From: a virus | Reading direction: 5' to 3' (one strand) | Virus genome (UHGV): UHGV-0286546 | Length of the DNA stretch: 64,000 nt | Shown here: positions 1 to 63,987 of the stretch, one piece after another | How the letters are laid out: each line of letters starts with the position of its first letter | Position numbering within the stretch: position 1 is the stretch's first letter | The notes under the pieces: generated by a model | The model's database searches: none | What the model saw: the letters and a program-made list of their open reading frames with translations, nothing else | What the model was told of the DNA's origin: nothing | Translations under genes and position numbers: made by a program

Positions 1-651
1 AAAAACGATTATATTTGGAAAATCAGACCAGGTAAAATTGCACCTTGGACTGGAACAGTATCTTATAAAAACTATGTTGGACCGAGTGAAAATATAATTA
101 AAGGTAATTCAAATATAGGCGAAGAGGTAGAGAAACATCCGGCTAAATATTTCTTTGAGGGTTTTACATTCAATAAAGTTATCGGTGTAAATTTAGATCA
201 AACAAAATTGGCTATTCTCAATTCGTCTCTGGAATCTGATGCAAATATTATTGTTTATGGATTTAAAGATGGAACCTTATCTCAATGCGAAAATTTGAGA
301 GCCAAATGGATTGGAGGCAAAATAAATGATTTGGTATTTTGTATTATTCATGATGATGTTACAATTACAAGAGCAAAAGTATTTGGTTGGACAGAAAGTG
401 AAATTGTTAAAACCAAATTACAGTCCGAATTAGTTAATTTAAAGTTAAAGGATTTCTATAATAAAGCTAATAAATTTAAAGAAATAATTGATAAAGAATA
501 TATCTCAAATACAATGGAAAAGTATAATTACCTCTCCGTTAAAATTAGAGGTTGGGATTATGTATTGTTTATATTCTTTTTCTTGGCTTTTGCGACTGTC
601 GGTTGGATTTTAATGTATATTAATGATATATGGGATGATAGAAGATTCTAG
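1..651 (+). CDS. Hypothetical protein, 5'-truncated at the window edge, with a C-terminal transmembrane helix
   Basis: The frame of ORF 208..651 stays open back to position 1 without stops, and the predicted start is a TTG. The C-terminus 'YVLFIFFFLAFATVGWILMYI' is hydrophobic. No recognisable family. Confidence 0.4.
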   Translation, partial: KNDYIWKIRPGKIAPWTGTVSYKNYVGPSENIIKGNSNIGEEVEKHPAKYFFEGFTFNKVIGVNLDQTKLAILNSSLESDANIIVYGFKDGTLSQCENLRAKWIGGKINDLVFCIIHDDVTITRAKVFGWTESEIVKTKLQSELVNLKLKDFYNKANKFKEIIDKEYISNTMEKYNYLSVKIRGWDYVLFIFFFLAFATVGWILMYINDIWDDRRF

Positions 652-1971: not shown

Positions 1972-1978
1972 GAATAAA

Positions 1979-2197: not shown

Positions 2198-2228
2198 AAG
2201 GGGGATTGTTTATTTCCCCCTTCTTTTA
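2198..2228. terminator. Bidirectional rho-independent terminator between convergent genes
   Basis: Perfect 8-bp GC-rich stem AAGGGGGA/TCCCCCTT (2198-2205 / 2215-2222) with T-runs on both strands. Lies between the + ORF ending at 2197 and the - ORF ending at 2226. Confidence 0.6.
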
Positions 2229-2681: not shown

Positions 2682-2759
2682 AGTTACCTCTTATTTTTGT
2701 TTTACATCATTTATTTTATATGACATACTTTACATAAAGTAAAGCAAAAAGGTAATCAA

Positions 2760-3056
2760 ATGGTTAAATGGTATATAAATACAGTTTATGACGGTCAGGA
2801 AAAAATAAGCGAATGTGGTTATTTTTTATGTAATTCGTTTCATAATTCAATTAAAAAGACTAATGGTATTTATTTTTCCTTTGCTGATTTGGATTACTGT
2901 GTTATTAAAGATTCACTTATAGCCGGAAGCTTAGGTAAAACTAAAGACATTTTACGGGTATTGAAATGGATTGTTGATAATAAATTTGATTGCTCACAAA
3001 AAGTAATAGATAAGTTTCTTAAGAAGACTTTAGATTATACGGAGAAACATCAATGA
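2760..3056 (+). CDS. Hypothetical protein
   Basis: ORF only. Overlaps the ligase start (ATGA). Confidence 0.3.
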   Translation: MVKWYINTVYDGQEKISECGYFLCNSFHNSIKKTNGIYFSFADLDYCVIKDSLIAGSLGKTKDILRVLKWIVDNKFDCSQKVIDKFLKKTLDYTEKHQ

Positions 3057-5002: not shown

Positions 5003-5008
5003 ACGAAA

Positions 5009-5335
5009 ATGCAAAAACCTGATTTTTTATCTTTTCGACATAATGATGCTGTAACAATACAAGATCTTCCCATAACTACCAGCGAAGTTGTCTTAAACGA
5101 ATGGAGGGATATAACGCTTTCGAATCAAGTTGTTACTTTTGATGATTTGACATCAGGAGAAAAAGTATATAAAGCTTTATTTATACATCTTTGTCGAATT
5201 CATCCAGAAAAAGAAGAAGACTATAAGACGTTACTGAAAATTTATAATGAAGATTACAGATTAACAGCCATAACTATTGAAAATGAAAATATGAAACAAA
5301 CATTAAATAAATTGAAAGAGACATTCGATGAATAA
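5009..5335 (+). CDS. Small protein, member of a 3-copy paralogous family in this window
   Basis: The C-terminal motif 'LLKIYNEDYRLTAITIENE' is shared with ORF 5328..5612 ('LLRLYNGDYRRAVITIETK') and ORF 44214..44591 ('CRIHRYDYRLAVLTYETK'). Confidence 0.45.
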   Translation: MQKPDFLSFRHNDAVTIQDLPITTSEVVLNEWRDITLSNQVVTFDDLTSGEKVYKALFIHLCRIHPEKEEDYKTLLKIYNEDYRLTAITIENENMKQTLNKLKETFDE

Positions 5336-5612
5336 TCATTTTGGAACAATGCCATATAATCCAAATTTTGCTTGTGACACAACTCCTGGCGCTAACGAAT
5401 CTTATGAAATATCACCGTTAGACATACAAATCTGCTATAAAAAGTTATTTGATATTTATAAAGGAGCTTTTCCGAATCAGGAAGGTGAATTTATAACGTT
5501 ACTTCGTTTATATAATGGAGATTATAGACGTGCAGTAATTACTATTGAAACTAAGTTACTAGAAAAAGAAGCAACTGAGATGAACGAATTGTTTGGAGCC
5601 AAGTTACCATAA
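5328..5612 (+). CDS. Small protein, tandem paralog of 5009..5335
   Basis: Shared Y-x-DYR-x-AV-x-T-x-ET motif. Overlaps its paralog's stop. Confidence 0.45.
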   Translation: MNNHFGTMPYNPNFACDTTPGANESYEISPLDIQICYKKLFDIYKGAFPNQEGEFITLLRLYNGDYRRAVITIETKLLEKEATEMNELFGAKLP

Positions 5613-5711
5613 ATTTGCTTTACAAAACACTTTCCTTATGTTATTATAAAAGTATGATAAAAATAAATTTATCATATTTTAGAAAAGGAAATAAAATAAG
5701 GAATAAAAATC

Positions 5712-6413
5712 ATGGTTTGCAAAGCATTAGATCGTAAATTAATTCGTGTATCAAAAGAACGAACAAAAAAAGTAGGTGTACGTAGTATAAATGACATTAT
5801 TAACAATACACCTAATCTTACTTTCGCTGAAAAAATCGCATACATTCGTCATCATTATACCTATTATGAGGGAAATTATCCTATGTTCCATCATAAAAAC
5901 GGTAAACCAAACGAAGTCAAAGCAGAACTCAATAATTTAATTGTAGATGTATTAAATAAAAAAGTACAGCCGGATGTTTTATCTGCATTTAATAAACGTA
6001 TTTTAGAATGGCGCAAAGAAAATAACATAGCAAATGAAAATATTGTTGACTCTTATATGCCAGTTGTTAATAAGCCTACTCCCGCTTGGAAACTTTCTGT
6101 TGAAACAGTTGAATCTGCTAAACCGTATATTTGTATAATTGATAAATACTTAAAGTCTTCTTTTAATGATTTAACAGATAAAGAAGAAGAAACTATTTCA
6201 TACAAAGAAATTAAGAAAAAAGCATTAGATTGGGTATATAATCTTTCCGAAGAAGAATTAGATAATTTAATTGCTTCTAATCGTATTTTAACTGATATTA
6301 AAGATAAATTGTTAAAAGCTAGAAATTATGAATACTCTTTAATTAAAGAAAAAATGAGACAATATGCAAAAGATTTAGGTTATTTAAATTCAGATCGAGC
6401 CTGTGCTGAATAA
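5712..6413 (+). CDS. Hypothetical protein
   Basis: Intact 233-aa ORF. No motif recognised. Confidence 0.3.
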   Translation: MVCKALDRKLIRVSKERTKKVGVRSINDIINNTPNLTFAEKIAYIRHHYTYYEGNYPMFHHKNGKPNEVKAELNNLIVDVLNKKVQPDVLSAFNKRILEWRKENNIANENIVDSYMPVVNKPTPAWKLSVETVESAKPYICIIDKYLKSSFNDLTDKEEETISYKEIKKKALDWVYNLSEEELDNLIASNRILTDIKDKLLKARNYEYSLIKEKMRQYAKDLGYLNSDRACAE

Positions 6414-6477
6414 AATTGTTTTACATATTTAAAAAACAGGATATTTTAAAATAGCTTGAATCAATAAGGAATACGTT

Positions 6478-6960
6478 ATGCTTAATTTCTATAAAAACTC
6501 AATCACAGTACCGTTTGTGGGTGGATTAGCTAGTTACGAGAAATTTGAACATGTACACGTGTATATTTATTATGATTGGTTAACTACTTATAAAACATTA
6601 GGATTAGTTTATAATTCAATTAAAAATTTATTCCTTGATAAAGAAAATATTGAGGTACCGGATAGTATTGGTTATGAAATTAAATTTTTAGACAAAGGAG
6701 CTGAAAATACCAAATTCGATCCTATTTTTAAGATTACTCGTAAAGATGGTGATACTGTTGCTCGTCATCAAGAAATATTAGCGGCAGTGGTATTAATTGA
6801 ATCATTAAACGAAATAAATAAAAAAAATTTAAATTTCAAAAGTACACCAGATCTTGATTTGTTATTAGCAACAATTCGCTTACAATACGCTTCTCCTTAT
6901 GATATGGGAAAGATATTAGCAATATTTTTTGATTCGGAGTTTGAAAAATGTTTTTCGTAG
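6478..6960 (+). CDS. Hypothetical protein
   Basis: ORF only. Confidence 0.3.
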   Translation: MLNFYKNSITVPFVGGLASYEKFEHVHVYIYYDWLTTYKTLGLVYNSIKNLFLDKENIEVPDSIGYEIKFLDKGAENTKFDPIFKITRKDGDTVARHQEILAAVVLIESLNEINKKNLNFKSTPDLDLLLATIRLQYASPYDMGKILAIFFDSEFEKCFS

Positions 6961-7280
6961 CTGATTTTCAATATAATTCTATTTATAATAGAAGGTGTAA
7001 AACGAGAGTAAGATTTATTTCTTATAATATAACTGATTTTTCGATAAAGAATGCACAGTATAATTATTTATGTGATCAGGAATTTCTCGAGTATTTAGGG
7101 AAAATTAGTAATACGATTCAAAATGTGAATAAAGCCGAATCTATACATAGAAATTATACTTTTATAATCGAAAGTTTTCCAGAAGAAATACAAACGTTAC
7201 TTTCTATATCAAAAGATGTTGTAGGAACTTTTAAAACTTACTTAAATGATGAAAAATTGGATAAATTAGCAAAGGAATAA
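6948..7280 (+). CDS. Hypothetical protein
   Basis: ORF only. Overlaps the upstream gene end. Confidence 0.3.
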   Translation: MFFVADFQYNSIYNRRCKTRVRFISYNITDFSIKNAQYNYLCDQEFLEYLGKISNTIQNVNKAESIHRNYTFIIESFPEEIQTLLSISKDVVGTFKTYLNDEKLDKLAKE

Positions 7281-7283
7281 AAA

Positions 7284-7697
7284 ATGTTTGGTTTAGAAAA
7301 GTTATTTAAAAGAAAAACAGATCGTTTTGTTTATGAATTAGGAAATTTATTAGATAATCCTGATAAAACTTTAGTATGTTATAGTGACTTGTACAAAAAG
7401 TTAGGTCTTTTTTCAAAATTAGAAGAGTTAAAAGTTTCTAATAATGAATCCAAATACCACTATAAGAATGTAAGAGCTAATGAAAAAACAATTACAAAGA
7501 TTGGACTAGCTTTAAAAGATAATTTAATAAACACAAAAAACAAATGGTCCAGAATCTATAAAAAAACTAAGCTTGGTAGTATGGCAGCTTGGGATTCGTT
7601 AATGTTTGCTCCTTTCAGTGACGAAAAAATAAAAGATGATACTATTGTTATTTTAGCTCCAACAGATAAAGATTATACTAAGTTTTCAGAGGAATAA
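7284..7697 (+). CDS. Hypothetical protein
   Basis: ORF only. Confidence 0.3.
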   Translation: MFGLEKLFKRKTDRFVYELGNLLDNPDKTLVCYSDLYKKLGLFSKLEELKVSNNESKYHYKNVRANEKTITKIGLALKDNLINTKNKWSRIYKKTKLGSMAAWDSLMFAPFSDEKIKDDTIVILAPTDKDYTKFSEE

Positions 7698-9563: not shown

Positions 9564-10199
9564 ATGGATGAAGTTGAACAGTTCGACGCTATGATGAATG
9601 ATGAACTCAAAGGAGCAGTAAACGATGTACTTAAAGCATTAGAAAGTTACACTTCGGAAAAATTAAATAGCTTAAGTAATTTACCAATGGATCTTGTCGA
9701 AGGGTTTTTATATGCAAATTCGATTAGTGTTCCTGAATCATTAAAAAAGCAAATGACAACTCCATACTCAATCGCAAAATACTTGTTACTTAAAGAACAA
9801 GAACGTGAAATGATTGAAAAAGTTGAAACTGAGTTAGAAAACGCTATTGACGCAGAAAAAGTAAATTGGCTTATTTATAAAGATTTAACAAACCGCATTA
9901 GCTTTTCTAAAAAAATTCCTATCAACAGTGATGAAGTACCACAGAGTTTGTCTGTAAAATATAAATACGATTCAGATAACGATAAACTCATATATAGTAT
10001 TTCAGACGGTAGTTGGGGTTGGGAAATATCATTAGCTCAGTTAAAAAGTATTTTAGAAAATAAAACAATCAGTCCAATTTCTGAATCTATTTCTAAGCAC
10101 TCTAAAGCTCCAGCAGATGTTAAATTTTCAACCAGTATGACAGATAATGAAATAGTTATTAACAGCGGACAAATAAAAATTATTGTTCAAAAGTGTTGA
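9564..10199 (+). CDS. Hypothetical protein
   Basis: Intact 211-aa ORF. Confidence 0.3.
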   Translation: MDEVEQFDAMMNDELKGAVNDVLKALESYTSEKLNSLSNLPMDLVEGFLYANSISVPESLKKQMTTPYSIAKYLLLKEQEREMIEKVETELENAIDAEKVNWLIYKDLTNRISFSKKIPINSDEVPQSLSVKYKYDSDNDKLIYSISDGSWGWEISLAQLKSILENKTISPISESISKHSKAPADVKFSTSMTDNEIVINSGQIKIIVQKC

Positions 10200-10234
10200 T
10201 ATACAAGGCTTTGATTACTATTTGGAAATTTATA

Positions 10235-10268
10235 AGGCTCATTTGTTATAAATGGGCTTTATTTTTTG
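10235..10268 (+). terminator. Rho-independent terminator
   Basis: Stem GGCTCATTT/AAATGGGCT(T) with one G.T wobble, followed by TTTATTTTTT. Confidence 0.5.
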
Positions 10269-10329
10269 TATAAACAGATATAATTTATTTATTGTTTGAA
10301 ACACAATATTTTTATACGGAGGAAAACTG

Positions 10330-10731
10330 ATGGGCGTAGTAAAAATACGATTGAATACGTGGCAAAGATGCGGTAATCGTGATACTAAATTTAAACGTGG
10401 TATTGCTCCGCGTGAAGGCTTTGTTGACGTATGTCCTGAAACCAACACCGTATTCGTCAAGAATGGCGAATATAAATGTAAACCTTGGGATACAGAAGTA
10501 TCTCGTAAAACAGACAAAGAGTATATTTCTAATCGAAAAGAGTTTTATTCTGGTTTATGCTTTGAATCAAAAGAAGATGCTCAAAGTTTTATGAATAAAC
10601 ATAAAGCGGAATTAGACAAACTCGCTGCTGAAAATCCACTCTTTGATCATTGGTCAATCATGAATGTTATTGAACGCTTTGAACCTAATCGTAAATTGGT
10701 ATATGGGAAGGACATCAAAGATGAAAAATAA
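10330..10731 (+). CDS. Hypothetical protein
   Basis: ORF with upstream GGAGGAAAA RBS. Confidence 0.35.
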   Translation: MGVVKIRLNTWQRCGNRDTKFKRGIAPREGFVDVCPETNTVFVKNGEYKCKPWDTEVSRKTDKEYISNRKEFYSGLCFESKEDAQSFMNKHKAELDKLAAENPLFDHWSIMNVIERFEPNRKLVYGKDIKDEK

Positions 10732-10969
10732 CCTCGATATATTGCTGAAGGTAATGAAAAGATATTCTGATCGCGCAGAACACTGTTTTAACGCAGGTAT
10801 AGTAATTAGTTTTCTGTTGTTTATCTTACCTTCGTTTTATCGTTTAATTGCACTAGTTGTTTGGTCTGTAGTAACACTTTTTGGTCTATATTTTATGGCC
10901 AAATCTAAGTATTATGGAAAACGATTTGATGGCATAATGAGTGCAGAAGAGAAAGCGTATAAAGAATAG
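10664..10969 (+). CDS. Small membrane protein (2 predicted TM helices)
   Basis: Hydrophobic stretches 'IVISFLLFILPSFYRLIALVVWSVVTLFGLYFM'. Confidence 0.3.
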   Translation: MLLNALNLIVNWYMGRTSKMKNNLDILLKVMKRYSDRAEHCFNAGIVISFLLFILPSFYRLIALVVWSVVTLFGLYFMAKSKYYGKRFDGIMSAEEKAYKE

Positions 10970-10998
10970 AAGTAATTTATTGTTCATGAGGGAAAAAT

Positions 10999-11400
10999 AT
11001 GACCAAAGTAGTTGGATATAAACAAAATCAAGAGCACTTTAATTGTTCACCTGAAATTAAAACAAAGATAAGTGAATTGTCATCAATATCAACTTGTCGC
11101 TATGATCCCACAGCCAAAAAAACAGGCGATATTGACGAATTTTTAAAAAGACCAATTAAATATACTTATGATATTACTGTAAAAAGTGAAGATGCATTAA
11201 GTGTATTTAAACATTCTTGTTATTTTGATAACAGAGAGGATGCTGAAAAAAATCATAAAAATTTAAGAGTTAAATATTATGATCAATTGACAGCTCCTTA
11301 TCTCGACAAAATAAAAAGAAAAGGTAAACTTTCGACTTATGATCAAGATGAAATTTTAGGAATTATTAAAAAATTCGATAATCTTAAGCTCGCTTCTTAG
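10999..11400 (+). CDS. Hypothetical protein
   Basis: ORF with GAGGGAAAAA RBS. Confidence 0.3.
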   Translation: MTKVVGYKQNQEHFNCSPEIKTKISELSSISTCRYDPTAKKTGDIDEFLKRPIKYTYDITVKSEDALSVFKHSCYFDNREDAEKNHKNLRVKYYDQLTAPYLDKIKRKGKLSTYDQDEILGIIKKFDNLKLAS

Positions 11401-11704
11401 TTGATTTCTTATCGCGCCGCTTAATAGCTTCCATAAACTTTTTCTTGTTTTCTGGATTCTTATACCAATCAGCTCTTGTTTTGGCGGCGCGAGCATTTAT
11501 TTCTTCTATATTCTTTTTGTTTCTGTGTGCTTTTTTTGCTGCCTCCGAATTACCAATCTGTCCTTTATACATATCACTTCTTAAAAATATTTCATCTTCA
11601 GATTTTGAGTTCTGAAATCTAGACTTTTGTAAATCACCAAAATTTTTAAATTCAGGATGCTGCAATAAATCTAACGTTTCATCTAGTATTTGTTCTATTC
11701 TCAT
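11384..11704 (-). CDS. Small basic (K/R-rich) protein
   Basis: C-terminal half is very lysine/arginine-rich ('KKAHRNKKNIEEINARAAKTRADWYKNPENKKKFMEAIKRRDKKSTKKRA'), so possibly nucleic-acid binding. Confidence 0.3.
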   Translation of the reverse strand: MRIEQILDETLDLLQHPEFKNFGDLQKSRFQNSKSEDEIFLRSDMYKGQIGNSEAAKKAHRNKKNIEEINARAAKTRADWYKNPENKKKFMEAIKRRDKKSTKKRA

Positions 11705-12183
11705 ATTAATTCTTTCCCCGGTGAATATATACGTTGTGCAAATTTATTCTTTTTATAATCAGATTCCCAACAATATATTATTTTAAAGCCTAGTGAATGA
11801 AATAACGCAAATCTAGCTTTTGTTCCTTCATATAATTGTCGGTATGTTGTTTTTGTTAATGGATTTAATGTATCGAAGACTTTTTTATATTTAATAGGAT
11901 TAGCATGATAAAAATCTCCTAAAAATTCATATATTGTACGAGTCGCTAAATTATATCCATCTACAATATATACTTTACCATTAAATCCGTATATAACTTT
12001 ACTTCTTTCTGGTACTTGTAAATTGTTCAACCAAATATCTTCAGTTTTTGATTGTCCATGCCGTAAATTAGTATTACCTACTTTTACAAATCCAATTTTA
12101 GGTTTTTTCGGTCTACAAAACTTTTTAATTGCTTTTCTTGTTGCTATTCTTGATTTTGCAGTTTTTGTCTTACTTGTTCTCAT
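11701..12183 (-). CDS. Vsr/PD-(D/E)XK-like nuclease (putative homing endonuclease)
   Basis: 'IVDGYNLATRTIYEFLGDFYHANP' resembles the Vsr 'FVDGCFWHG' core, followed by 'IIYCWESDY'. The same two-block pattern recurs in ORF 46430..47929 ('GVEFNGAYFHS' ... 'IHIWEDQW'). Confidence 0.45.
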   Translation of the reverse strand: MRTSKTKTAKSRIATRKAIKKFCRPKKPKIGFVKVGNTNLRHGQSKTEDIWLNNLQVPERSKVIYGFNGKVYIVDGYNLATRTIYEFLGDFYHANPIKYKKVFDTLNPLTKTTYRQLYEGTKARFALFHSLGFKIIYCWESDYKKNKFAQRIYSPGKELI

Positions 12184-13013
12184 CCTTCCCAGTTTCTCTT
12201 TGTTCTAGGTTTCTTATATTTTTGTACATATTTTTTGTTATTAAACCGATCATATTCGTATTCAATAATTTCAGCCAAACGTTTCATTAATTTAACATAT
12301 CGATCGGAATCCAAAGAATACACGTAATTGATTAAATCATCAGATAACATACAATCTTTTCCATCTTTTGCTTTTTTTATTTCTTTTATAATTGTATTTA
12401 TTACGTTTTGTTTTAATGCTTTGTCGTGCTCATCGTTTAAATTTATTTTATCGAATTGATCTTTTATGTATTTTCTAAAGTAATGTTGAACTTCTATAAA
12501 ATGTGCATTAAACTCCAAAGGTTGATTATAATATTCACGATTCGTTTTTATTTCATTTGTATCTGTGTTATATCGTTTTAAATCTTGTCTATGTATTAAT
12601 TCGTGAATGATAGAGCTTTTTATGTTTGTCTTCATAATTATTTTGACAATATCTGGTAGTGTTATTTTATTTGGAGTATTTAATATAGAAACATAAACAA
12701 TATCTTCTTTGTCTTCAGTATCTATAAATACAGTTGCGTCAGATATGTCTTTTGATAAAAATATGTACTTTATATCGTCCACTTCTATACAAGGTCCAAA
12801 AAATGCTTTATTATGTCCATTGTATTTATAAAAATCAGAAAAATCTCCAGTATCTAAAATGGTTTTAATTTTTGTTATAAATTTTCTAGCTTTCATATGA
12901 GCGAGAGTTTCAGCACGTAAATCATCTTCTGCGTTTTCTAATAAAAATCTTTCGAATGTTTCTTCTGTTTGTTCACTCAAATCCGATTTAAGTGCATACC
13001 ATAAAATTGTCAT
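12180..13013 (-). CDS. Putative zinc metallopeptidase (HExxH motif)
   Basis: 'IIHELIHRQD' contains an HExxH zincin motif, with a downstream 'EFNAHF' as possible third ligand. Otherwise no family recognised. Confidence 0.35.
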   Translation of the reverse strand: MTILWYALKSDLSEQTEETFERFLLENAEDDLRAETLAHMKARKFITKIKTILDTGDFSDFYKYNGHNKAFFGPCIEVDDIKYIFLSKDISDATVFIDTEDKEDIVYVSILNTPNKITLPDIVKIIMKTNIKSSIIHELIHRQDLKRYNTDTNEIKTNREYYNQPLEFNAHFIEVQHYFRKYIKDQFDKINLNDEHDKALKQNVINTIIKEIKKAKDGKDCMLSDDLINYVYSLDSDRYVKLMKRLAEIIEYEYDRFNNKKYVQKYKKPRTKRNWEG

Positions 13014-34552: not shown

Positions 34553-35914
34553 TTACGCAATGTCCGAAGGTGTAGGACTATAATTTACTTCTTTATTATA
34601 AAATGGTCCAACCTTATCTAACATCTTAGCAAGTTTAGTTTTGATTGTTACTTTTTCAAGGCTTACTGTACCTTCTTCAGCTTCGTCTTTTTTAAGTAAA
34701 ATCTTTGTAATGATCTTACCTAATTCGAAACACATTTCTTCAGTAAAACCTCTAGTGGTGACTGCTGCTGTACCTAAACGAATACCCGTACAGTCAGAAG
34801 GCTTTTTATCATCTTTAATCATATTTTTATTACAAATGATACTGTAAGAAGTAAGTCTATCTTCTGCTTCCTTACCGTACATGTCAGTCTTAGAAATATC
34901 TACAAGTACTAAATGATTATCAGAACCACCAGATACAAAATCAATCAAATTATTTGTGTCTTCAGCTTTGATTCCTTTAATCATTGCTTGCATATTTAAA
35001 AGAATTTGTTTAGCATATTTTTTAAAGGCCGGAGTTTGTGCTTCTATAAAACATTGAGCCTTTGCTGCAATAGTTGCTTGATTTGAACCACCTTGAGTAC
35101 GAGGAAATACACCAGCATTTAATTTATTACATAAATCTTGATCATTCCAAAGAATCAATCCACCTCTTGGTCCACGTAACGTTTTATGCGTCGTAGAAGT
35201 AACTACATCTGCATAAGGTAACGGAGAAGGATGTAAACCGGCAGCAACCAAACCAGCAATATGTGCCATATCAACCATTAAATAACAAGATTTGATTGGA
35301 GTTTCAGGATTATTAGAGCCTCCACAATCATAATAAACGGATTGATTGTAATCATCAACCATACTTTTAATTCTTTCAAATTCAATGATGCGAGAATAAG
35401 CACTTGCTCCAACAACCAATAATCTAGGTTTACAAGAATAAAGTTTCTCTCTAATTTCTTCATAATTTAAATAACCATTTTCATCGAGGCCATAATATTC
35501 AGCAACATATTCTTTACTTGTATCTGACGCTGGTGAAACGTGAGTCAAGTGTCCACCTGCTGCTAAACTCATTCCAAGAACTTTGTCACCAGGTTTTAAC
35601 AATCCTGCATATACAGCTTGATTTGCTTGAGAACCTGACCAAGGCTGAACGTTAGCATAATTACAATTAAAGAGTTTACATGCCTGCTCAATAGCATAAT
35701 TTTCGAGCTTATCAATAATATGACATCCAGCGTAATGTCTACCTTGTTTAGATACTTCCTTAGAAAAACCCTCAGAATATTTTACAGAAAAATGTGAACC
35801 CATAAGATCTAAAATATCCTGTGAAGGGTAATTTTCAGATGCAATCAATTCAATATCATTATTGAGTCGCCAAGTTTCTTCTTTTTCTAACTCTTGCAAA
35901 TATTTATTAATCAT
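34553..35914 (-). CDS. glyA: Serine hydroxymethyltransferase
   Basis: PLP-lysine block 'TTHKTLRGPRGGLIL' and the Gly-rich 'GGHLTHG' region. Length is 453 aa. Confidence 0.9.
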   Translation of the reverse strand: MINKYLQELEKEETWRLNNDIELIASENYPSQDILDLMGSHFSVKYSEGFSKEVSKQGRHYAGCHIIDKLENYAIEQACKLFNCNYANVQPWSGSQANQAVYAGLLKPGDKVLGMSLAAGGHLTHVSPASDTSKEYVAEYYGLDENGYLNYEEIREKLYSCKPRLLVVGASAYSRIIEFERIKSMVDDYNQSVYYDCGGSNNPETPIKSCYLMVDMAHIAGLVAAGLHPSPLPYADVVTSTTHKTLRGPRGGLILWNDQDLCNKLNAGVFPRTQGGSNQATIAAKAQCFIEAQTPAFKKYAKQILLNMQAMIKGIKAEDTNNLIDFVSGGSDNHLVLVDISKTDMYGKEAEDRLTSYSIICNKNMIKDDKKPSDCTGIRLGTAAVTTRGFTEEMCFELGKIITKILLKKDEAEEGTVSLEKVTIKTKLAKMLDKVGPFYNKEVNYSPTPSDIA

Positions 35915-35929
35915 TGTTCGTTTCTCCTT

Positions 35930-36940
35930 CTATATAAAGTTTTCTTCTAATCTAAATAAACGGGTTAATTCTTGTTTCTTTTTATTTTCATCGAATTTTA
36001 TATCCTCTTCTGTATTATAATAATCTGATGTGTATTTATAAAGCTGATTATAGAATTCTTTTTTGTTTTCTGGTGTTAAATAAAAAATATCTTTTCTAAA
36101 CATAGCTTGTATATCTGCATCAATTACATTATAGTATCCTTTTGGTAACGGTACTTGTCCTAAAAACATATCAAACCAAGTATTTATATAATCTTTATCT
36201 TTTAAATTTTCAAAAACAAGGTTTTTTCCATTCCTTAAAATAAATCTTCCAAAAGTTCCAATAATCATTTGTACATTAGCTTTAAATTCATCTGGATCAT
36301 TTAAATAAGCAATGGAGTCTAGTATGTCATATTTTTTATTAGCTAAACTGTTTGTCATATCATCTACATAATGCTGTAACTCATGTAAATAATTATAATC
36401 TGTATCCAAAAATAATTTTACGATGTCTAGCTTTGTGATGTTTTCGATATTTTCAACAAAGATAATTAAAGTTTTTGTTTCATCGTCATATCCCAGCAAA
36501 ACATCTTCCGGCATTTTATATTCATTGCGCTCAGAAAACTTAACTGTTAACTTTCCAAAGACTGTATCAATTGAAAATGAATGATTATTATCTAAAGAAG
36601 AGTATAGACTTGTTTTTCTAAATTCATCTATATCATATGGAAGTGAAGCCACTGATCCATATGTTTTATATGCACCAATCATATCTTTTTCATTTCTAGA
36701 TAACTTACTATATATATCTTTTAATAAATCTCGATATATATCATTGGCAATTCTTCTTTCTCTAGTTAATTGTAACGGATCAAAAGCTTCTGTCAAATAT
36801 AAGTATTGCTTTACAGGATATTTGGCAGGAATGGAAAAACCCTTTATTTGTTGTAATGATTTTTCTACTAATCTTCCTACTTCTGTTTCAGATGTATGTT
36901 TCATAGCCAATTTATATATATTGTCCAGGTATTCATTCAT
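35930..36940 (-). CDS. Hypothetical protein
   Basis: Intact 336-aa ORF. Confidence 0.3.
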   Translation of the reverse strand: MNEYLDNIYKLAMKHTSETEVGRLVEKSLQQIKGFSIPAKYPVKQYLYLTEAFDPLQLTRERRIANDIYRDLLKDIYSKLSRNEKDMIGAYKTYGSVASLPYDIDEFRKTSLYSSLDNNHSFSIDTVFGKLTVKFSERNEYKMPEDVLLGYDDETKTLIIFVENIENITKLDIVKLFLDTDYNYLHELQHYVDDMTNSLANKKYDILDSIAYLNDPDEFKANVQMIIGTFGRFILRNGKNLVFENLKDKDYINTWFDMFLGQVPLPKGYYNVIDADIQAMFRKDIFYLTPENKKEFYNQLYKYTSDYYNTEEDIKFDENKKKQELTRLFRLEENFI

Positions 36941-46429: not shown

Positions 46430-47929
46430 ATGAAATATATTTGTCAGTATTGTGGTAAAGAATATGAAGCTGATGTCAATAATGGACCTTGGCAAAAAGA
46501 TAATACACAAAAAATGGTAAAACAGGGTGTAAATGTTTCCAGATTCTGTTGCTATGAATGTGGTAAAGCTGCACGTAAAGAAAAAATAGCTAAAAACTGG
46601 CAAAATAAAAGCTTAGAAGAAAGAGAAAGCATAAACAAAAAACGTAAATCATCAATTCTTCCTAAAGTTTGTAAAAATTGCGGTAAAACCTTTATACCAA
46701 ATCAAGCCGGAGGATCAAAAAATGGTGTCTATCTTTGTTCTGATCAATGCCGAAAAGAATATTTCCAACAAATTCCAGAATCCGGTATGCGTATTTGTGA
46801 AGAATGTGGTAAAGAATACTATTATGAAAAAAATCAAGGTAATTGGAATAAAGATAACGAATTAATAGATTCTTCTGAAAACAATAAAGAATTTTCAATT
46901 AAAAGTCATAGATTCTGTTGTTATGAATGCGGTGTAAAACATAAAGAAAAATTAAGAAAAATAACTAATCTACAAAAATATGGTTATTTGAGTCCATGGC
47001 AGGATATTGTTATTCGTGAAAAAATGTTTGATAAAATGAAAAAGGATGGTACATTGTTTAGTTCAAAGCCAGAAAAAGAAATTCGTGCATTTATAGAAAG
47101 TCTCGGTTTTAGTACTGACAAATTTATCATTGGTGACGGACGCACTTCTCAGCGCTTTGAAATTGATATATACATTCCAGAAAAAAATATCGGTGTTGAA
47201 TTTAATGGTGCATACTTTCATAGTATTAATGGTAAAAAAATAGGCTTTATATCGCATAATTATCACTATAACAAATCAAAAATTGCTAAAGAAAAAGGTA
47301 TAGAATTAATACACATTTGGGAAGATCAATGGGCAAACCAAAAAGATATTGTAAAAGATATATTAAAAGCTAGATTAGGTGTAATTGATAAAGATAATCG
47401 TATATACGCTAGACAATGTACGATTAAAGAAATATCAACAGAAGAATATAAAACCTTTTGCGAAAAATACCATATGCAAGGATATAGAAGTGCCAAAATA
47501 AAATACGGTTTATTCTATCAAGGTAAACTCGTACAAATATCTTCCTTTAGCCGAACTAGAAATACCGGTAAAGCCATACAGAAAAACCAAGAATATGAAT
47601 ATGAATGGTGTCGTGGCTGTATAGCTTCTAATAACTTTGTAATCGGAGGTACTTCAAAATTATTAAAACATTTTATCAAAGAATACGATCCTGATTCAAT
47701 TCTATGCTATGCAGATTGGAATTTATTTAATGGAAACGGCTATAAAGAAGCAGGTTTTGAATTTGACGGATATACAGGACCAGATAAATTCTATATTCAA
47801 CCAAAACCAATACTTAGAATAAATCGTAATCCTCATAAGTATAAAGAATATAAACGACTCGTAGAAGATCATAAATTATGGTTATGTTATGGAGCCGGAT
47901 CATTACGGTTTAAATGGATTAAAAAATGA
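46430..47929 (+). CDS. Homing-endonuclease-like protein: N-terminal repeated zinc ribbons + Vsr/PD-(D/E)XK-like nuclease domain
   Basis: Four 'CxxCGK...CCYECG' ribbons, a nuclease core 'FEIDIYIPEKNIGVEFNGAYFHS' ... 'IELIHIWEDQW', and a C-terminal domain of unknown function. Confidence 0.5.
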   Translation: MKYICQYCGKEYEADVNNGPWQKDNTQKMVKQGVNVSRFCCYECGKAARKEKIAKNWQNKSLEERESINKKRKSSILPKVCKNCGKTFIPNQAGGSKNGVYLCSDQCRKEYFQQIPESGMRICEECGKEYYYEKNQGNWNKDNELIDSSENNKEFSIKSHRFCCYECGVKHKEKLRKITNLQKYGYLSPWQDIVIREKMFDKMKKDGTLFSSKPEKEIRAFIESLGFSTDKFIIGDGRTSQRFEIDIYIPEKNIGVEFNGAYFHSINGKKIGFISHNYHYNKSKIAKEKGIELIHIWEDQWANQKDIVKDILKARLGVIDKDNRIYARQCTIKEISTEEYKTFCEKYHMQGYRSAKIKYGLFYQGKLVQISSFSRTRNTGKAIQKNQEYEYEWCRGCIASNNFVIGGTSKLLKHFIKEYDPDSILCYADWNLFNGNGYKEAGFEFDGYTGPDKFYIQPKPILRINRNPHKYKEYKRLVEDHKLWLCYGAGSLRFKWIKK

Positions 47930-57494: not shown

Positions 57495-57869
57495 CTAAAC
57501 TTCAGCTGATACTTCCTCAACAATATATGGATTCTCGGCTCTAATCTTGTCCTTACTCTCTAACCAAGCTACTTTAAGCTCCTCAACATTATCTGCATCT
57601 CTTGCAACAGCTTCGAGATAGTCATTACGAAGCTTATCAGAGGTTTGAATATAGAGCTGTTCACGGGTTGCACGGATAGCTTCATTCTGCTCGGCAATAG
57701 TCGGCTCAGGTTTTTCAGGAGCATAGCCAGATAAGTACCAAGAACCGTCATAAGCCTGTTCAACTTCCATTTTAACCATTCCGATAGATTGATAATAAGC
57801 AGAATTTGTGCCAGTACCAACTTCACAAAGCTTGGTTTCTTCATTTATTACTTTTGCATATTTTTTCAT
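57495..57869 (-). CDS. Putative tail-fibre assembly/chaperone protein
   Basis: Small protein immediately downstream of a fibre gene. Paralog of 59423..59809 (shared '...REQLY...ENPY' ends). Confidence 0.4.
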   Translation of the reverse strand: MKKYAKVINEETKLCEVGTGTNSAYYQSIGMVKMEVEQAYDGSWYLSGYAPEKPEPTIAEQNEAIRATREQLYIQTSDKLRNDYLEAVARDADNVEELKVAWLESKDKIRAENPYIVEEVSAEV

Positions 57870-57879
57870 TTTAGTTTAC

Positions 57880-59376
57880 TCATTTACAAGGATAGAAAGT
57901 CATTTTGTTAAAATTAGTCCAAGAAATTACATCGCCTTTAGCAACAGCATACTCAAATCCAGCTGACTGGCCGCTTAGATACTTTGCTCCGGTTGAATTG
58001 TTATAAATCACAATACCATTAATTGTTAGGCTTCGTACTCCGTTATCTGAAAGATTATGAATACCAATTATAAAACCAGATTTTGTGGCTGTATAAGGCG
58101 AAGCCATTGAAACCCCTGCTGTATAATCAGGCATACCCCAACCAACAATGTTTGCTTTTCCCGCTGCGCTTACATTATCCAGAGCAACATTAGCTTTACT
58201 TGTTAAATCAACAGTTCCCCAACTCGCCGTTGTTCCGTTTGTTGTTAGGAATTTACCGCTCTGCCCTGACTGACTCGGTAGGCTGTCTTTAGCATCAATA
58301 GCAGTTTTAACAGCCTTGTTGCTAGGGTACTTTGTTGTGCTATCATCAAGAGTCTGTGAGAGGTTTGAGATGTCCTGTTTGCCGTTTAATTCACGAGCAT
58401 AGTCATTCCAATCCACAGCGTGAAACGGAAGCCCGATTGTTAATTTGGTAATAGGATATGGAGATGTTGCACTTGTAAACCATTGACCGATGTAACAAGG
58501 GAAATTGTCTTTCCAAAAAAGATTACCATTTGAGTCTAAATCACACCGATAAACCTTGTTTTCTGAAGGTTTATACCATATATTATAACGAACCAAAGAA
58601 GGTTCATTTTCTTGTTGATAGATTTGACCTAGACTACCAGTGCTTATAAATTGAATGCTACCATTTTGTGTATATTTTCCAATAAACAACTCTTGACCGC
58701 CAGAATTGTTCCAAGTAATTGTTCGAGTTACAACTTTATCAAGTGTAAGTTCAATATTCTTCAAACTACCGTCAGCATTTCTACCATTCGGAATAAGTCC
58801 TTTAACCCCTGGCAAAGAAAACGCGGTCGAACCGATATAACCAAAGCCGTTAAATACTTGGTCGATGGAGGTAACACCTGTTCCATTTGTTATCATAACA
58901 ATAGCTAAAGGCAAACACCATCCTGATTGCCAAGTAGAACCACTATCAGTTGTATATTTAACATAGTTGTTAGCCGTATCATACCAGAACATATACGGCT
59001 GTCCACTAGGAGCTGTACTTCCACTATATTGCTGTGTATCTAATGAAAGTAATTGTATTGTGTTATTCGGTAATACACAAAGAATATGTTTTGAAGAAGC
59101 ATAACTTGATGGAGAAATTTGCATATCACTTGTAATTGTAGCAGTATCAAATACCCCACTTCCATTCGGCACATAAACCTTACTACCGGCTTTTAACGTC
59201 AGAGTACCATTATTCAACTCAAGTTTAATGTCCTGTGGAATTTCCGTAATGCAGTTGGTGATTTGAGAAGTATTAAGAGTGTTATCCCATACATTAGGTA
59301 CAGTATTCCACAGATCTCTATCAGCTTTATCGTTTATTTGTTCAGCCAATTTTCCTAAATCTATATCTTGAGTCAT
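57880..59376 (-). CDS. Tail fibre / receptor-binding protein
   Basis: G/S/T/N-rich 498-aa protein sitting in the fibre cluster, followed by a chaperone-like gene. Confidence 0.5.
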   Translation of the reverse strand: MTQDIDLGKLAEQINDKADRDLWNTVPNVWDNTLNTSQITNCITEIPQDIKLELNNGTLTLKAGSKVYVPNGSGVFDTATITSDMQISPSSYASSKHILCVLPNNTIQLLSLDTQQYSGSTAPSGQPYMFWYDTANNYVKYTTDSGSTWQSGWCLPLAIVMITNGTGVTSIDQVFNGFGYIGSTAFSLPGVKGLIPNGRNADGSLKNIELTLDKVVTRTITWNNSGGQELFIGKYTQNGSIQFISTGSLGQIYQQENEPSLVRYNIWYKPSENKVYRCDLDSNGNLFWKDNFPCYIGQWFTSATSPYPITKLTIGLPFHAVDWNDYARELNGKQDISNLSQTLDDSTTKYPSNKAVKTAIDAKDSLPSQSGQSGKFLTTNGTTASWGTVDLTSKANVALDNVSAAGKANIVGWGMPDYTAGVSMASPYTATKSGFIIGIHNLSDNGVRSLTINGIVIYNNSTGAKYLSGQSAGFEYAVAKGDVISWTNFNKMTFYPCK

Positions 59377-59422: not shown

Positions 59423-59809
59423 TTAGTAACTTTCTTCTGTTGGATATGGATTTTCTTCTTTAATTTTAGCAACTATTTCTGCTCTCTTAACTTTAAGAGC
59501 TTCAATCTCTGCTAGAATCTCTTCAGTCTCTTCTTCATCTCTTAAAGATTGTATTTGACAAGTGATTGGGTCTTTTTGGTCTCGATAAAGAGCTTCACGA
59601 GTCTGACGAACTTCTTCGTAGGTTGGAGTAGGTTTCTCAGGCTCTTCACCTGCAAAATACATTTTGCCGTCCCATGCTGTAACGATCTCTTTGTTAGTAG
59701 CTTCGATAGAGTCTAATGATATACCTAATGCAAACGCACCATCTTTTACAGCCTCGGCATCACTTCCTGAAAGTTTTATTTCATTATTTAGTAATCCAAT
59801 ATAAATCAT
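59423..59809 (-). CDS. Putative tail-fibre assembly/chaperone protein
   Basis: Paralog of 57495..57869, positioned after a fibre gene. Confidence 0.4.
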   Translation of the reverse strand: MIYIGLLNNEIKLSGSDAEAVKDGAFALGISLDSIEATNKEIVTAWDGKMYFAGEEPEKPTPTYEEVRQTREALYRDQKDPITCQIQSLRDEEETEEILAEIEALKVKRAEIVAKIKEENPYPTEESY

Positions 59810-61146
59810 TATTTTTCTCCTAAAGCGTATCTAAAAATTACGGCATCTGCTGTTACAGTACTATTATACACAAAAATCTGTCCTTTACCGATGTAGAACA
59901 TCCCACGGGCAGCATTCGCTACTGTTTTTGGTATTCCGCTGTTGAAAATAGGAGTTGTTCGGTTCTCATCTCCCTCAGCATATATTAAAGCCTGCCCATA
60001 AACATCTGTGCCATTTATTCTAATTTCTATATACCCATTTGCAGGAGCCTGAAAATAAGCCTGAGGTGCAAGAGATACAGATATTACTCTAGCACTTGAA
60101 GCAACACCAGATAGAAGTGTATTTCTTCCTGCAGCACTAAGATTGTCCATATCAACATTAGCTTTATTCGCTAGTTGCTCTAAAGCCCTTCCAGCATTAA
60201 TTAAATTGGCATCTTGTGCTGTTTCACCAACATAGAAGTACAGATACATTTCTGTTGCTCTTTGTTGTACCGGCGCTCCATTTTGGTAGGTTGATGATGA
60301 GAGAGAAGCATCAAATCCAAGTGAAAAGTTGACAGAATCGCTATTATTATTAGCTGGTTTAGAATACCACCCAATTGCGCCTAAGTTTTTTATGCCATAA
60401 AAACTTCCTGTCTTCTTAGGGTAATATGATGTAATAGCATTTCCGTCATTATTATATGCACTACCAGTAATATTCGGCAGGGTTTCTAGCACATAATTTC
60501 CGACATTGTTACGGCAGCCGACAAATCCCCATTTAGATTGAGGCAGCTTAAATTGTGTATTGGCTGTATCTAAGACATAATACCAAGCAACACCTTGAGA
60601 TGCGTATAGAGCGGAAACATCTGTATCCTCAGCGACATCTGCAATTCTGTAACCTTTCGGAGTAAGCTTATAGGTGATGTTTCCATCTGTCTGCTCTGTT
60701 CCTAAATTGTACTCTGACAACAGTTCTTCATAAGCCGATACATACACTGTTCCGGAAGCCCAATTCCCATTAGAAAGAAGCCAAGATGAATTATTTAAGG
60801 TATGGTCTACAAACTTAGCATCAAATAAGGAATAGGGATTATTAAGCTCAATCTCACGAGTTACATCTACACTTTCCTCAACACCAGTTGCTACTTGGAT
60901 AAAATATGGGTATTGAATAGCTTCTTGTTGAACTGGAGCATTATCTTGGTAGGTTGATGAACTGCGGGAAGCGTTGAAATTCATTTGATTATTATTAGAA
61001 CCGGAGCCCATGCCACCATAGGGATTATTACCATCATAAAAAGCACCTGAACCACCAGTTAGCCCATTTTGTCTCCCATAGAAAGTTCCTTTAATATTCG
61101 GCAAGCTCTCAGCCTTAATACTTCCCATCAAAGCTAAATCTTGCAA
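59809..61146 (-). CDS. Tail fibre distal part with duplicated receptor-binding modules (in frame with upstream fibre ORF across one TAG)
   Basis: Contains a full copy and a partial copy of the ~200-aa module found in 61216..62448 ('VYVSAY...GVAWYYV.DT.N.QFKLP..KWGF...PNITG...SSSTY.D.APVQ...EMYLYFYVG'). The predicted start is a TTG with no RBS. Confidence 0.55.
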   Translation of the reverse strand: MQDLALMGSIKAESLPNIKGTFYGRQNGLTGGSGAFYDGNNPYGGMGSGSNNNQMNFNASRSSSTYQDNAPVQQEAIQYPYFIQVATGVEESVDVTREIELNNPYSLFDAKFVDHTLNNSSWLLSNGNWASGTVYVSAYEELLSEYNLGTEQTDGNITYKLTPKGYRIADVAEDTDVSALYASQGVAWYYVLDTANTQFKLPQSKWGFVGCRNNVGNYVLETLPNITGSAYNNDGNAITSYYPKKTGSFYGIKNLGAIGWYSKPANNNSDSVNFSLGFDASLSSSTYQNGAPVQQRATEMYLYFYVGETAQDANLINAGRALEQLANKANVDMDNLSAAGRNTLLSGVASSARVISVSLAPQAYFQAPANGYIEIRINGTDVYGQALIYAEGDENRTTPIFNSGIPKTVANAARGMFYIGKGQIFVYNSTVTADAVIFRYALGEK

Positions 61147-61215
61147 GCCATTGATATTAACAACCTTAGGCAGTCTGATTGTACCGGCTGTATCATCAAT
61201 AACAAACTTACCACA

Positions 61216-62448
61216 CTAACCAAGTTTAGAATTAGTGACTTCTGCCTGCCAGTTTGTTTCAGTTGCTGCAAGGTTAGGATTTAATTGGATAATAGTCTTA
61301 ATCTTGTTTGTAAAAGACACAAACTGAGATTGACTGATAACTTGTCCATTCAAGTACCTGCGTTTATTTTGTGTTTCATCAATACCAAGTGGCGCAATAC
61401 CGATGTCACCTATTTCTAAACTACCACCTGAATCTTTTTTAAGCTTTTCTACATCTGTAACAAGGGTATCTAAATTTACTTCACTCTCTACTATTACTGT
61501 ATTACCTACATAGAAGTATAAGTACATTTCAGTTGCGCGCTCTTGTACTGGAGCATTGTCTTTGTAGGTTGATGAACTGCGGGAAGCGTTGAAACTTGTT
61601 GTCCTTCCGCCACTATCTGTAGTTATCCAACTAGATGGTCCTGCTACATATTGCGGAGTTTCCAATTTAAAAGCTCCAGTCGGTGTAGAGGAATAAGCAG
61701 TATACTGAATAGCACCGGTAATATTCGGCACACTCTCTGATACGTAGTCACCAGCTTTATTTCTGAGTCCTGTGAATCCCCATTTAGTTCTTGGAAGTTT
61801 AAATTGTTTATTTTCAGTATCAATAACGTAATACCAAGCTACTCCTGTTTTTTCATAGAGAGAGGTGAGGTTAGCTAATTGATCTGGTAAACAAATTTTA
61901 TAATTATTTTCTGAACGATAGAAAGAAATAGTAATATCGTCTATTGTTTCGGTTTCAAGGACCGTAGAAGCACGTTCTTTTTCTTTTAATAATTTGTTAT
62001 AGGCAGATACATAAACAGCCGCAGAATGCCAAGAAAAGTTATCTGCGCGTGTCCAAGAGATATTATTAATGATATGATCTGACCATTTAAAGTCGAACAG
62101 ATTAAAGCCACTTATTTTAGAAGAATCTGCAGTAACTTCATCTGTAACATTATAAACGGTATTAAGATCTTTTTCTGCTAATGCAAGGTATTCAGCTGTA
62201 GTACCGTTCCAAATTTTAAGCATAGTATCGTTTGGATTAGCGTTTTCTATAGCTTTTACGGTAACTGCACCGTTTGTTCCTGTGTCTCCGTTAACAGAAG
62301 TAATACCAACATTGATATTGAGATCTTCTGTAGTTTTATTACCGTCTAATTCTACCCCATTAATTTTGGGTTTATTTATGAGGTCTTGGTAATCTGTAGT
62401 AGAAGAAACAGAATCTGCGATTATAATTTTACCTTGTCTAATACTCAT
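61216..62448 (-). CDS. Tail fibre protein (N-terminal NKP-x-ING motif + receptor-binding module)
   Basis: The N-terminal 'DYQDLINKPKINGVELDGNK' fibre motif also appears in 62470..63987 ('DYELLTNKPMVNGITLVGNR'). A repeat module follows. Upstream motif AAATATAAAGAGAGATAATAAGA-ATG. Confidence 0.6.
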   Translation of the reverse strand: MSIRQGKIIIADSVSSTTDYQDLINKPKINGVELDGNKTTEDLNINVGITSVNGDTGTNGAVTVKAIENANPNDTMLKIWNGTTAEYLALAEKDLNTVYNVTDEVTADSSKISGFNLFDFKWSDHIINNISWTRADNFSWHSAAVYVSAYNKLLKEKERASTVLETETIDDITISFYRSENNYKICLPDQLANLTSLYEKTGVAWYYVIDTENKQFKLPRTKWGFTGLRNKAGDYVSESVPNITGAIQYTAYSSTPTGAFKLETPQYVAGPSSWITTDSGGRTTSFNASRSSSTYKDNAPVQERATEMYLYFYVGNTVIVESEVNLDTLVTDVEKLKKDSGGSLEIGDIGIAPLGIDETQNKRRYLNGQVISQSQFVSFTNKIKTIIQLNPNLAATETNWQAEVTNSKLG

Positions 62449-62469: not shown

Positions 62470-63987
62470 TTAAGAATTTAGTTGTGCTTCTAAAGCGGCA
62501 ATTCTAGCTTCTAATGCATTAATTTTATTTGCCAGTGTTGTATTCTGAGTTTGCGCGTTATCATCTGTAATAAAGTACGTAACAGCATCATCATAAGTAG
62601 CTAATGCATCATATTCAGCAAGTGTACCTTTCCACAATCTACTATTTACATAATTATCTGATGTAACTACATTTTCAGGTACTTCGTAGGTATTCGTAAT
62701 TGTGTTATTTTCAATTTTAATACCATTACCTGCTGTTAAAGTATCTTGTTTAGTGTCTAATTTTTGGTCTGTTTCTGTTTTTGTATAGTAGTCACTTAAA
62801 TCAACGGTAGTTGAACCAATAAGCTCAAAAGATGAAGTACTCTCAAGCCAAATATATTCGTCGTAAATATTATCACCACTTACAGATGTTTTAGGCAGTA
62901 AGTATAATACCATTTTTTGACCAGTTGCAGGTAACGCATCAACAATTTTTATTTCAAATTGTGAAATACTTGCAATCGCACTAGCAACATCAGAGGCTGT
63001 TTGATACCCTGCATCATTAGTAAGAGAACTAACATTAGTAGGAATTTCAGATTTTAAAGCAATGTTAGGTTTATCAGCAGTATAAATAGGATCTGTTTCT
63101 GTTTGTAAAGCTGTAGCGCCCTTGCTTGCACCTTGCCTTATTACATCTAAATCAGAAATAACATCTTGCTTTTTAGCTAATTCTTCATTTACATAAGATG
63201 TGTCTGCTTTTCCAGAAATATCTTGATGTTCAGTCAAATATCCCGAATCATTCTCTAACTGAGATACTTTTGTCGGAATATCAACGCTTTTAGCATACGT
63301 ATTTTCTATTTCTTCTTTTGTATAAACATCTGTAATACCATACCCAGCAAGAGTAGTTGCTTTATCAGCTTTTTTATTTTCTAATGTATTTTCGACGGTA
63401 TTAACTCTTGTATTAGTAGCATAATCTCCGGCAGGTTGAATTCCTAACTCTCCCAAAGATCTATTACCAACTAAAGTAATGCCATTAACCATCGGTTTAT
63501 TAGTAAGTAATTCGTAATCTCTACTATCTGGTTGGTAGTCGCCTAAGAAGATAACTACTTCTGTTCTTACACCTGCCTCAAATGGTTTAGATAATACAAT
63601 CGTATCTTTGGCATCGTTTAAGTTAAATTCAGTAGAAAGAATCTGAGTATTTTCAATATTAACGTAGAAGATGTTTGCTTTACTTAATACTGTCATACCG
63701 AGTGGAATTTCATTACTATAACTCTCAAATGTATAACTAACTTTATATTGAGTCATAGAACCACCACCGACAGAAATCCATCTCGAAGTACCACCATCTG
63801 AGGTTGGTAATACGTTAATACTATCTATTGGAGCATTACTGGTTGCATCATATAAGTAGATTCTAGTATTTTCACGGATAACAATATATTCACCGCCTGT
63901 TTCATTATTATAGTTGGCGGCATCTGCGACGTGTTCTAACTGTCTAAAACCTAATTTTGTTAAATAAGAGGATACTTTGGTTGCCAT
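62470..63987 (-). CDS. Tail fibre / tail spike protein
   Basis: Contains the 'DYELLTNKPMVNGITLVGNR' motif and a C-terminal coiled coil 'NKINALEARIAALEAQL'. Confidence 0.55.
   Translation of the reverse strand: MATKVSSYLTKLGFRQLEHVADAANYNNETGGEYIVIRENTRIYLYDATSNAPIDSINVLPTSDGGTSRWISVGGGSMTQYKVSYTFESYSNEIPLGMTVLSKANIFYVNIENTQILSTEFNLNDAKDTIVLSKPFEAGVRTEVVIFLGDYQPDSRDYELLTNKPMVNGITLVGNRSLGELGIQPAGDYATNTRVNTVENTLENKKADKATTLAGYGITDVYTKEEIENTYAKSVDIPTKVSQLENDSGYLTEHQDISGKADTSYVNEELAKKQDVISDLDVIRQGASKGATALQTETDPIYTADKPNIALKSEIPTNVSSLTNDAGYQTASDVASAIASISQFEIKIVDALPATGQKMVLYLLPKTSVSGDNIYDEYIWLESTSSFELIGSTTVDLSDYYTKTETDQKLDTKQDTLTAGNGIKIENNTITNTYEVPENVVTSDNYVNSRLWKGTLAEYDALATYDDAVTYFITDDNAQTQNTTLANKINALEARIAALEAQLNS

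Follow-up and report, generated by a model that had tools for sequence, protein, structure and literature searches.

Two open reading frames on the minus strand of a gut phage genome, ORF A at 62448..61216 and a second one at 61215..59809, share one frame and are separated by a single stop, the TAG at 61218..61216. The question that this locus raises is whether the pair encodes two proteins, one protein made in two forms, or one protein whose gene has been interrupted. All coordinates refer to the window, i.e. the whole 64-kb stretch of DNA that was analysed, unless a related locus is named. On the minus strand the junction reads ...AAT TCT AAA CTT GGT TAG TGT GGT AAG TTT GTT ATT GAT GAT..., and the gene obtained by reading through it has 879 codons (410 + TAG + 468) plus a final TAA at 59811..59809, so that the amber is codon 411 of the fused gene (Table 1). 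An earlier reading of the same DNA, hereafter the original prediction, had placed a lone TAG at 61216-61218 between two ORFs in the same frame, had noted that the 69 nt from this TAG to a TTG start read cleanly, and had proposed one gene of ~856 codons with an internal amber. Translation bore out the shared frame and the lone stop, and the 69 nt are indeed 23 open codons (CGKFVIDDTAGTIRLPKVVNING). The single gene also stood, as orthologues align across the stop, and only its length has to be revised to 879 codons because the 23 intervening codons had been omitted.

Table 1. Features of the fibre locus in the window and disabling lesions in orthologues from related loci (positions of the latter are those of the related locus).
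Feature	Position	Strand	Basis or remarks
Tail-fibre (receptor-binding protein) gene	59809..62448	-	Translation; contiguous orthologues across the whole length
Amber TAG, codon 411	61216..61218	-	Conserved Gln codon CAA/CAG in relatives
ORF A, 410 aa, ATG start: anchor, module 1, linker, first ~65 aa of module 2	61219..62448	-	
23 codons (CGKFVIDDTAGTIRLPKVVNING), coding, core of module 2	61147..61215	-	Homology to modules 1 and 3; near-invariant in orthologues
Last 445 aa of the gene, from the end of module 2 through module 3 to the C-terminal tip domain	59812..61146	-	
128-aa gene	59423..59809	-	ATG overlaps the fibre TAA (TAATG); paralogue of the 124-aa gene
124-aa gene, last of the fibre operon, ends in TAG	57495..57869	-	Follows the second fibre; terminator-like hairpin after it
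L024 (P0014)	9775-12301		CAA to TAA at Gln5
L025 (P0018)	796-3279		GGA to TGA at Gly54
L026 (P0019)			CAA to TAA at Gln21
L031 (P0016)	5001-7600		CAA to TAA; the Gln lies in YPYFI-Q-VATG and is equivalent to window Q518; remaining frame open and homologous
L032 (P0022)	3147-5691		Extra A (+1) in the A6 run GAAAAAAC, codons 199-200

In a search of 5.8 billion proteins, numerous matches were uninterrupted, with lengths of 826-890 aa and identities of 60-82%; most of them are encoded on contigs of 240-245 kb. Overall the contiguous orthologues were 58-82% identical and aligned over the whole length; P0001-P0013 and P0017 are single uninterrupted proteins of 826-1193 aa that span the junction. Another same-frame junction with only a TAG between its parts was observed in the window (34553..36940, minus strand, TAG at 35930). 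There the TAG is followed directly by AAGGAG and then an ATG, and the downstream gene encodes a methyltransferase, which makes it an ordinary gene boundary. Since contiguous orthologues align across the stop in the fibre gene and only one other such junction exists in the window, the same-frame arrangement of the pair is not due to chance. Judged from these sequence comparisons, the ORF pair is a single tail-fibre gene split by an amber codon, and we suggest that 61216..62448 and 59809..61146 be recorded in annotation as one disrupted tail-fibre gene and not as two proteins. Neither megablast nor tblastn against 50,697 GenBank phage records found a close cultured relative; the source is an uncultured gut phage of ~240 kb.

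The architecture of the fused protein places the stop inside a module. The protein opens with an anchor (aa 1-110) that carries a Phage_tail_C-like motif at residues 77-102, and continues with three tandem modules of ~200 aa and a C-terminal tip; module 1 spans aa 115-318 and module 3 spans aa 538-745 of the fused protein. The repetition is visible at both levels, as three DNA repeat copies at a spacing of 615-663 nt and as a BLASTP match of ORF A 115-318 to residues 128-333 of the downstream part (45% identity, E = 4e-50). The original prediction had the downstream ORF opening in the middle of a module with a partial repeat, and this holds: ORF A 207-312 matches the very first residues past the TAG with E = 7e-11 (FVIDDTAGTIRLPK versus YVIDTENKQFKLPR). 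In a three-way module alignment the TAG falls at column 94 of ~205, within module 2 and not at a domain boundary, and therefore the stop cuts the module in the middle. It aligns with the Val of KTGVAWYYVID, where modules 1 and 3 read G-V-A-W-Y-Y-V-I-D and module 2 reads G-*-C-G-K-F-V-I-D, which puts it inside the conserved core G-x-x-x-[YF]-V-I-D.

Orthologues hardly differ over their first ~110 residues. Most differences fall in a single loop of module 1, a single loop of module 2 and the stretch that runs from module 3 to the C-terminus and is mosaic between genomes. The repeated modules had no significant match in Pfam or PHROGs, even at E = 10. For the intact orthologue P0001, AlphaFold2 gave a mediocre model (pLDDT 68, pTM 0.31), and Foldseek found no match to it in the PDB below E = 0.001. 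The weak Foldseek matches were jelly-roll folds of the TNF/C1q/CBM35 type; they probably fall on the C-terminal domain of the model, as receptor-binding tips often look like this. The modules stay an unnamed fibre domain. A second fibre type is encoded in the window at 57880..59376. In some relatives (P0020 and P0021) the anchor and module 1 of the fibre described here are joined directly to the body of this second fibre type (ITNCITEIPQDIKLEL...). Modules have therefore been exchanged between the two fibre genes.

What did the relatives carry at the amber position? In the protein alignment of the 19 best orthologues, 18 have Gln and one has Ile, and the Gln is flanked by an invariant stretch, NWQAEVTNSKLG-Q-CGKFVIDD. 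A wider alignment of 60 homologues gave at least 90% conservation of Gln at this position. The DNA of 23 relatives, drawn from IMG/VR, JGI metagenomes, ENA and Logan, has CAA in 20 cases and CAG in three. A stop at the amber position was found in none of the 23 relatives at the DNA level, none of the 19 aligned orthologues and none of the 60 aligned homologues. The comparison proposed with the original prediction, whether related phages have a sense codon here, thus points to Gln (18/19 proteins; CAA or CAG in 23/23 DNAs). Two of the three CAG carriers, L025 and L031, are close relatives with near-identical flanking sequence, and therefore one C-to-T transition is enough to yield the TAG of the window; from CAA, the codon of most relatives, two changes would be needed.

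The part of the gene past the stop has the properties of a coding sequence. Its 468 codons contain no further stop or frameshift in an AT-rich gene. As compared with the closest intact orthologue (L022/P0001), dN/dS was 0.11 for aa 412-540 and 0.07-0.10 for the upstream segments, with dS of 0.26-0.57. On these substitution patterns, the downstream half is not an old pseudogene and evolved as coding sequence.

We consider a point nonsense mutation, which converted a conserved Gln codon to amber and split one tail-fibre gene, the best explanation of the locus, at a probability of about 0.8, in preference to programmed readthrough. The conserved codon, most simply a CAG, would have become TAG in the middle of module 2 by one C-to-T transition. 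Under the standard code translation would stop there, leaving a 410-aa fragment in which the anchor and module 1 are complete, module 2 is present to one third, and everything from there to the distal tip, including module 3, is missing. Such a fragment would not work as a fibre, rare near-cognate readthrough aside, and the allele would then be a loss of function. The mutation is probably recent, since the 468 codons after it have stayed open and keep a signature of purifying selection. The phage presumably survives by its other fibre genes, so that this fibre would be dispensable in at least some hosts; the gene may be conditionally dispensable. Other fibre genes are indeed present, of 505 and 498 aa in the window, with larger ones upstream. 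A recent nonsense mutation was also the second option of the original prediction, and that part is upheld by the Gln in relatives, the uniqueness of the stop and the downstream dN/dS of 0.11. The phase-variable host-range switch coupled to it is unsupported, as it is not obvious how a point nonsense mutation could be switched back.

The rival reading that survives best is a sequencing or assembly error, in which the true codon would be CAG or CAA and the T a wrong consensus base. The window differs from the CAG allele of close relatives by one base, the T is known from the consensus only, and one related Logan contig (L026) is visibly error-ridden. Against this, the exact 410-aa product is on record on five contigs from two sources, ENA and JGI/IMG, although these may all derive from one sample, and a sequencing error is less likely for that reason. 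All other window proteins that were looked up are on record there as well. The exact 445-aa ORF B was not on record in the encoding-contig index, and a scan of JGI metagenomes for the TAG allele returned four distant relatives only, all with CAA. Substitution errors are rare in an Illumina consensus, no other gene in the window is broken, and independent disruptions with intact neighbours in other samples, described below, show that such alleles do occur. Taken together, we infer a real mutation and regard an error at this base as unlikely.

A second rival holds that the TAG is decoded as Gln by a suppressor tRNA(CUA), encoded elsewhere in the phage or supplied by the host, to give a full-length fibre, possibly late in infection only. 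The TAG does lie exactly at a conserved Gln, as code-15 suppression would also produce, and gut phages that reassign TAG to Gln by means of suppressor tRNAs have been described (10.1101/2021.08.26.457843; PMC9523058; PMC10607447). The pattern is not specific, as an ordinary CAG-to-TAG mutation likewise leaves a TAG opposite Gln in standard-code homologues. We scanned all six frames of the window for ORFs that would merge under reassignment of TAG, TGA or TAA. Global reassignment of any of the three was rejected: with TAG as sense and a minimum of 70 aa per ORF, no more than two pairs merged in the 64-kb window, namely the fibre junction and the ordinary gene boundary at 35930. The window's own contig, scaffold_5 of ENA ERZ28658812 (locus L021), adds 10 kb upstream. 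In these 10 kb the standard code gives open frames without interruption for structural genes of 680, 761, 875 and 505 aa and for a 1079-aa gene as far as its 3' part lies within the locus. The scaffold itself, at 480,241 bp, is about twice as long as related contigs that look complete (237-245 kb) and is probably a two-copy (concatemer) assembly.

The fibre-gene amber is therefore the only in-frame TAG of its kind in the 64 kb and the 10 kb of flanking structural genes, whereas gut phages known to be recoded encode suppressor tRNAs and have dozens of genes with in-frame TAGs (10.1101/2021.08.26.457843; PMC10607447; PMC9523058), with 41 ORFs affected in phAss-1 (PMC10607447). The sequence scanned for recoding amounts to about one quarter of the ~240-kb genome; the other three quarters or so, about 170 kb, leave room for a suppressor tRNA gene. 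ARAGORN detected no tRNA in the 64-kb window or in L021-L026. When it was run on the window and 30 related loci, a single tRNA-Cys was found, in an unrelated 51-kb contig, and none in the loci of the clade; Rfam had no match on the window. TAG also terminates eight other ORFs in the ORF table of the window, including the last gene of the fibre operon, which stops where its paralogue at 59423..59809 stops. Its ending in TAG followed by a terminator-like hairpin indicates that TAG is a true stop in this very operon. The original prediction had described TAG as a normal stop elsewhere, as it is at the ends of 208..651 and 6478..6960 among others, and had judged global TAG recoding unlikely, a judgment that the ORF-merging scan confirmed for the 64-kb window. 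In addition, no relative has a TAG at the site, and the TAA, TGA and frameshift lesions of the same gene in relatives would be beyond rescue by a TAG suppressor. Decoding as Gln is thus very unlikely, and the site alone gives no ground to flag the genome as stop-codon recoded.

Least likely among these rivals is programmed, context-driven readthrough of the UAG, which would yield a fixed ratio of 410-aa and 879-aa fibre isoforms. This was the first option of the original prediction, which had put programmed readthrough or suppression together as a source of long and short forms. The two parts do lie in one frame, and the predicted fold of the 141 nt around the stop is more stable than the folds of shuffled sequences (z = -3.1). 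The fold is not conserved, however. The same region in relatives gave z values of -2.4, -0.05 and -1.6 with different structures, and an RNA structure that stimulates readthrough was rejected on this ground. Between 61195 and 61237 on the minus strand, the TAG sits in the 3' arm of an 8-bp hairpin (CACUAAUU / GGUUAGUG) that the CAA relatives do not form. This hairpin owes its existence to the mutation, and L022, L023 and L024 have no such hairpin or a different one; that it contains the TAG is probably a coincidence. The base following the stop is U, which is not known as a leaky context in bacteria. More decisive is that the stop is conserved in no relative, its absence from all 23 relatives in itself largely refuting the idea, and that it lies within a module, so that the short form would end in a partial domain. 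Relatives with TAA, TGA or a frameshift in the same gene speak against both long-and-short schemes. Independent expression of ORF B was rejected as well: neither candidate start, the TTG at 61146 or the ATG at 61128, has an AGGA/GGAG at 6-12 nt, in agreement with the earlier remark that the downstream ORF is without a Shine-Dalgarno motif, and therefore independent translation of the downstream half is unlikely. Most genes of the window do show AGGA/GGAG at a spacing of 6-12 nt, and this use of Shine-Dalgarno motifs would argue against a Bacteroidota host.

Several orthologues start at Met76 or end early in the database, and their DNA was therefore examined. Five of them carry a disabling lesion (Table 1). 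One of them, L026 (Logan ERR2235336), has stops or frameshifts also in its homologues of the 875-aa, 505-aa and 785-aa genes besides the fibre TAA at Q21; such damage points either to errors of assembly or to a genome in decay, and we discounted this contig. For L022-L025, L031 and L032, tblastn showed that the neighbouring genes are full length, without stop or frameshift. Counting the window, reliable distinct disabling lesions are thus present in 5 of ~21 orthologues (6 of ~22 with L026), from different sequencing runs. They comprise amber, ochre and opal codons and a +1 slip in an A6 run, at six different sites when L026 is included. The occurrence of all three stops and a frameshift argues against anything specific to TAG and indicates that null alleles of the fibre gene occur repeatedly.

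As a rough control we used the 15 listed members of each of two neighbour clusters. In the AAA-ATPase cluster all 15 listed members are full length, and in the cluster of the 875-aa gene 13 of the 15 are; the other two, of 199 and 669 aa, share a 3.2-kb contig, and we take them to be a single split gene. The comparison of 5/21 disrupted fibre orthologues with 1/29 disrupted control sequences (Fisher p = 0.07) is suggestive only and does not prove an excess, because the 90% clustering of the database hides truncated members. Purifying selection on the fibre gene between genomes is strong (dN/dS ~0.1). It is a tentative possibility, on the doubtful side, that the gene is a hot spot at which null alleles arise again and again, independently, in this jumbo-phage clade in its natural gut populations. 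If so, loss of one receptor-binding fibre would be repeatedly advantageous locally and a dead end in the long term, a natural counterpart of the loss of stf in laboratory lambda. A variant in which the amber allele is partly suppressed and tunes fibre dosage is less likely. Recurrent knock-outs fit selection on the presence or absence of this fibre, and the disruptions may represent loss of an accessory fibre. If confirmed, the recurrence would illustrate cleanly, and in nature, how selection repeatedly removes an accessory fibre from gut phages, and would bear on host-range dynamics and on the trust to be placed in the fibre gene content of metagenome-assembled phage genomes.

The genes around the fibre gene add some detail. 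A similar small gene lies 3' of the fibre gene in all relatives, and the 128-aa and 124-aa products of the window are probably fibre assembly chaperones. An upstream nonsense mutation could reduce the expression of such a small gene through polarity. The neighbouring 505-aa fibre-like gene also varies in length between genomes. In L024 (9086-9754) the orthologue of the 505-aa fibre-like gene (window 62470..63987) has only 222 aa owing to an in-frame internal deletion, and in L031 the orthologue of this upstream 505-aa gene has 623 aa. Elsewhere in the window (46430..47929, plus strand), a 499-aa ORF located among replication and structural genes matches PHROG families of homing/HNH endonucleases.

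How does this locus compare with known systems? The code-15 crAss-like phages, Lak phages and phAss-1 (10.1101/2021.08.26.457843; PMC9523058; PMC10607447) resemble it in that a late structural gene of a gut phage has a TAG at a Gln position. They differ in having dozens of such codons and not one, while here TAG still ends genes of the same operon, relatives use the standard code at the site, and the accessible sequence holds no suppressor tRNA. The amber (am) mutants of T4 and lambda grown on supE (glnV) hosts offer a parallel at the level of the codon. They too include CAG-to-TAG changes at Gln, for which a Gln-inserting tRNA would restore the wild-type protein exactly. Those mutants were selected as conditional lethals, whereas the present allele comes from a metagenome, with no suppressor detected in the sequence read. 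In phage Q-beta, stop-codon readthrough makes the extended structural protein A1; there the stop is conserved and the short product is complete and functional. The fibre gene shares with it a same-frame extension past a single stop in a virion protein gene, but its stop occurs in a single genome and cuts a domain short.

The closest analogue is the side-tail-fibre gene stf of lambda PaPa, which Hendrix and Duda reportedly found in 1992 to be split into orf-401 and orf-314 by a frameshift. In both cases one fibre gene appears as two adjacent ORFs through one point lesion, and intact versions exist in relatives, Ur-lambda for stf and the contiguous orthologues for the gene described here. Lambda is viable since its fibre is accessory; the present fibre is only presumed to be dispensable. 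The lesion of stf is a frameshift in a laboratory stock, whereas the amber substitution described here arose in gut phages in nature. As an event, one amber mutation is ordinary; what is worth following is that the same receptor-binding gene has been knocked out in different ways in several independent samples with its neighbours intact.
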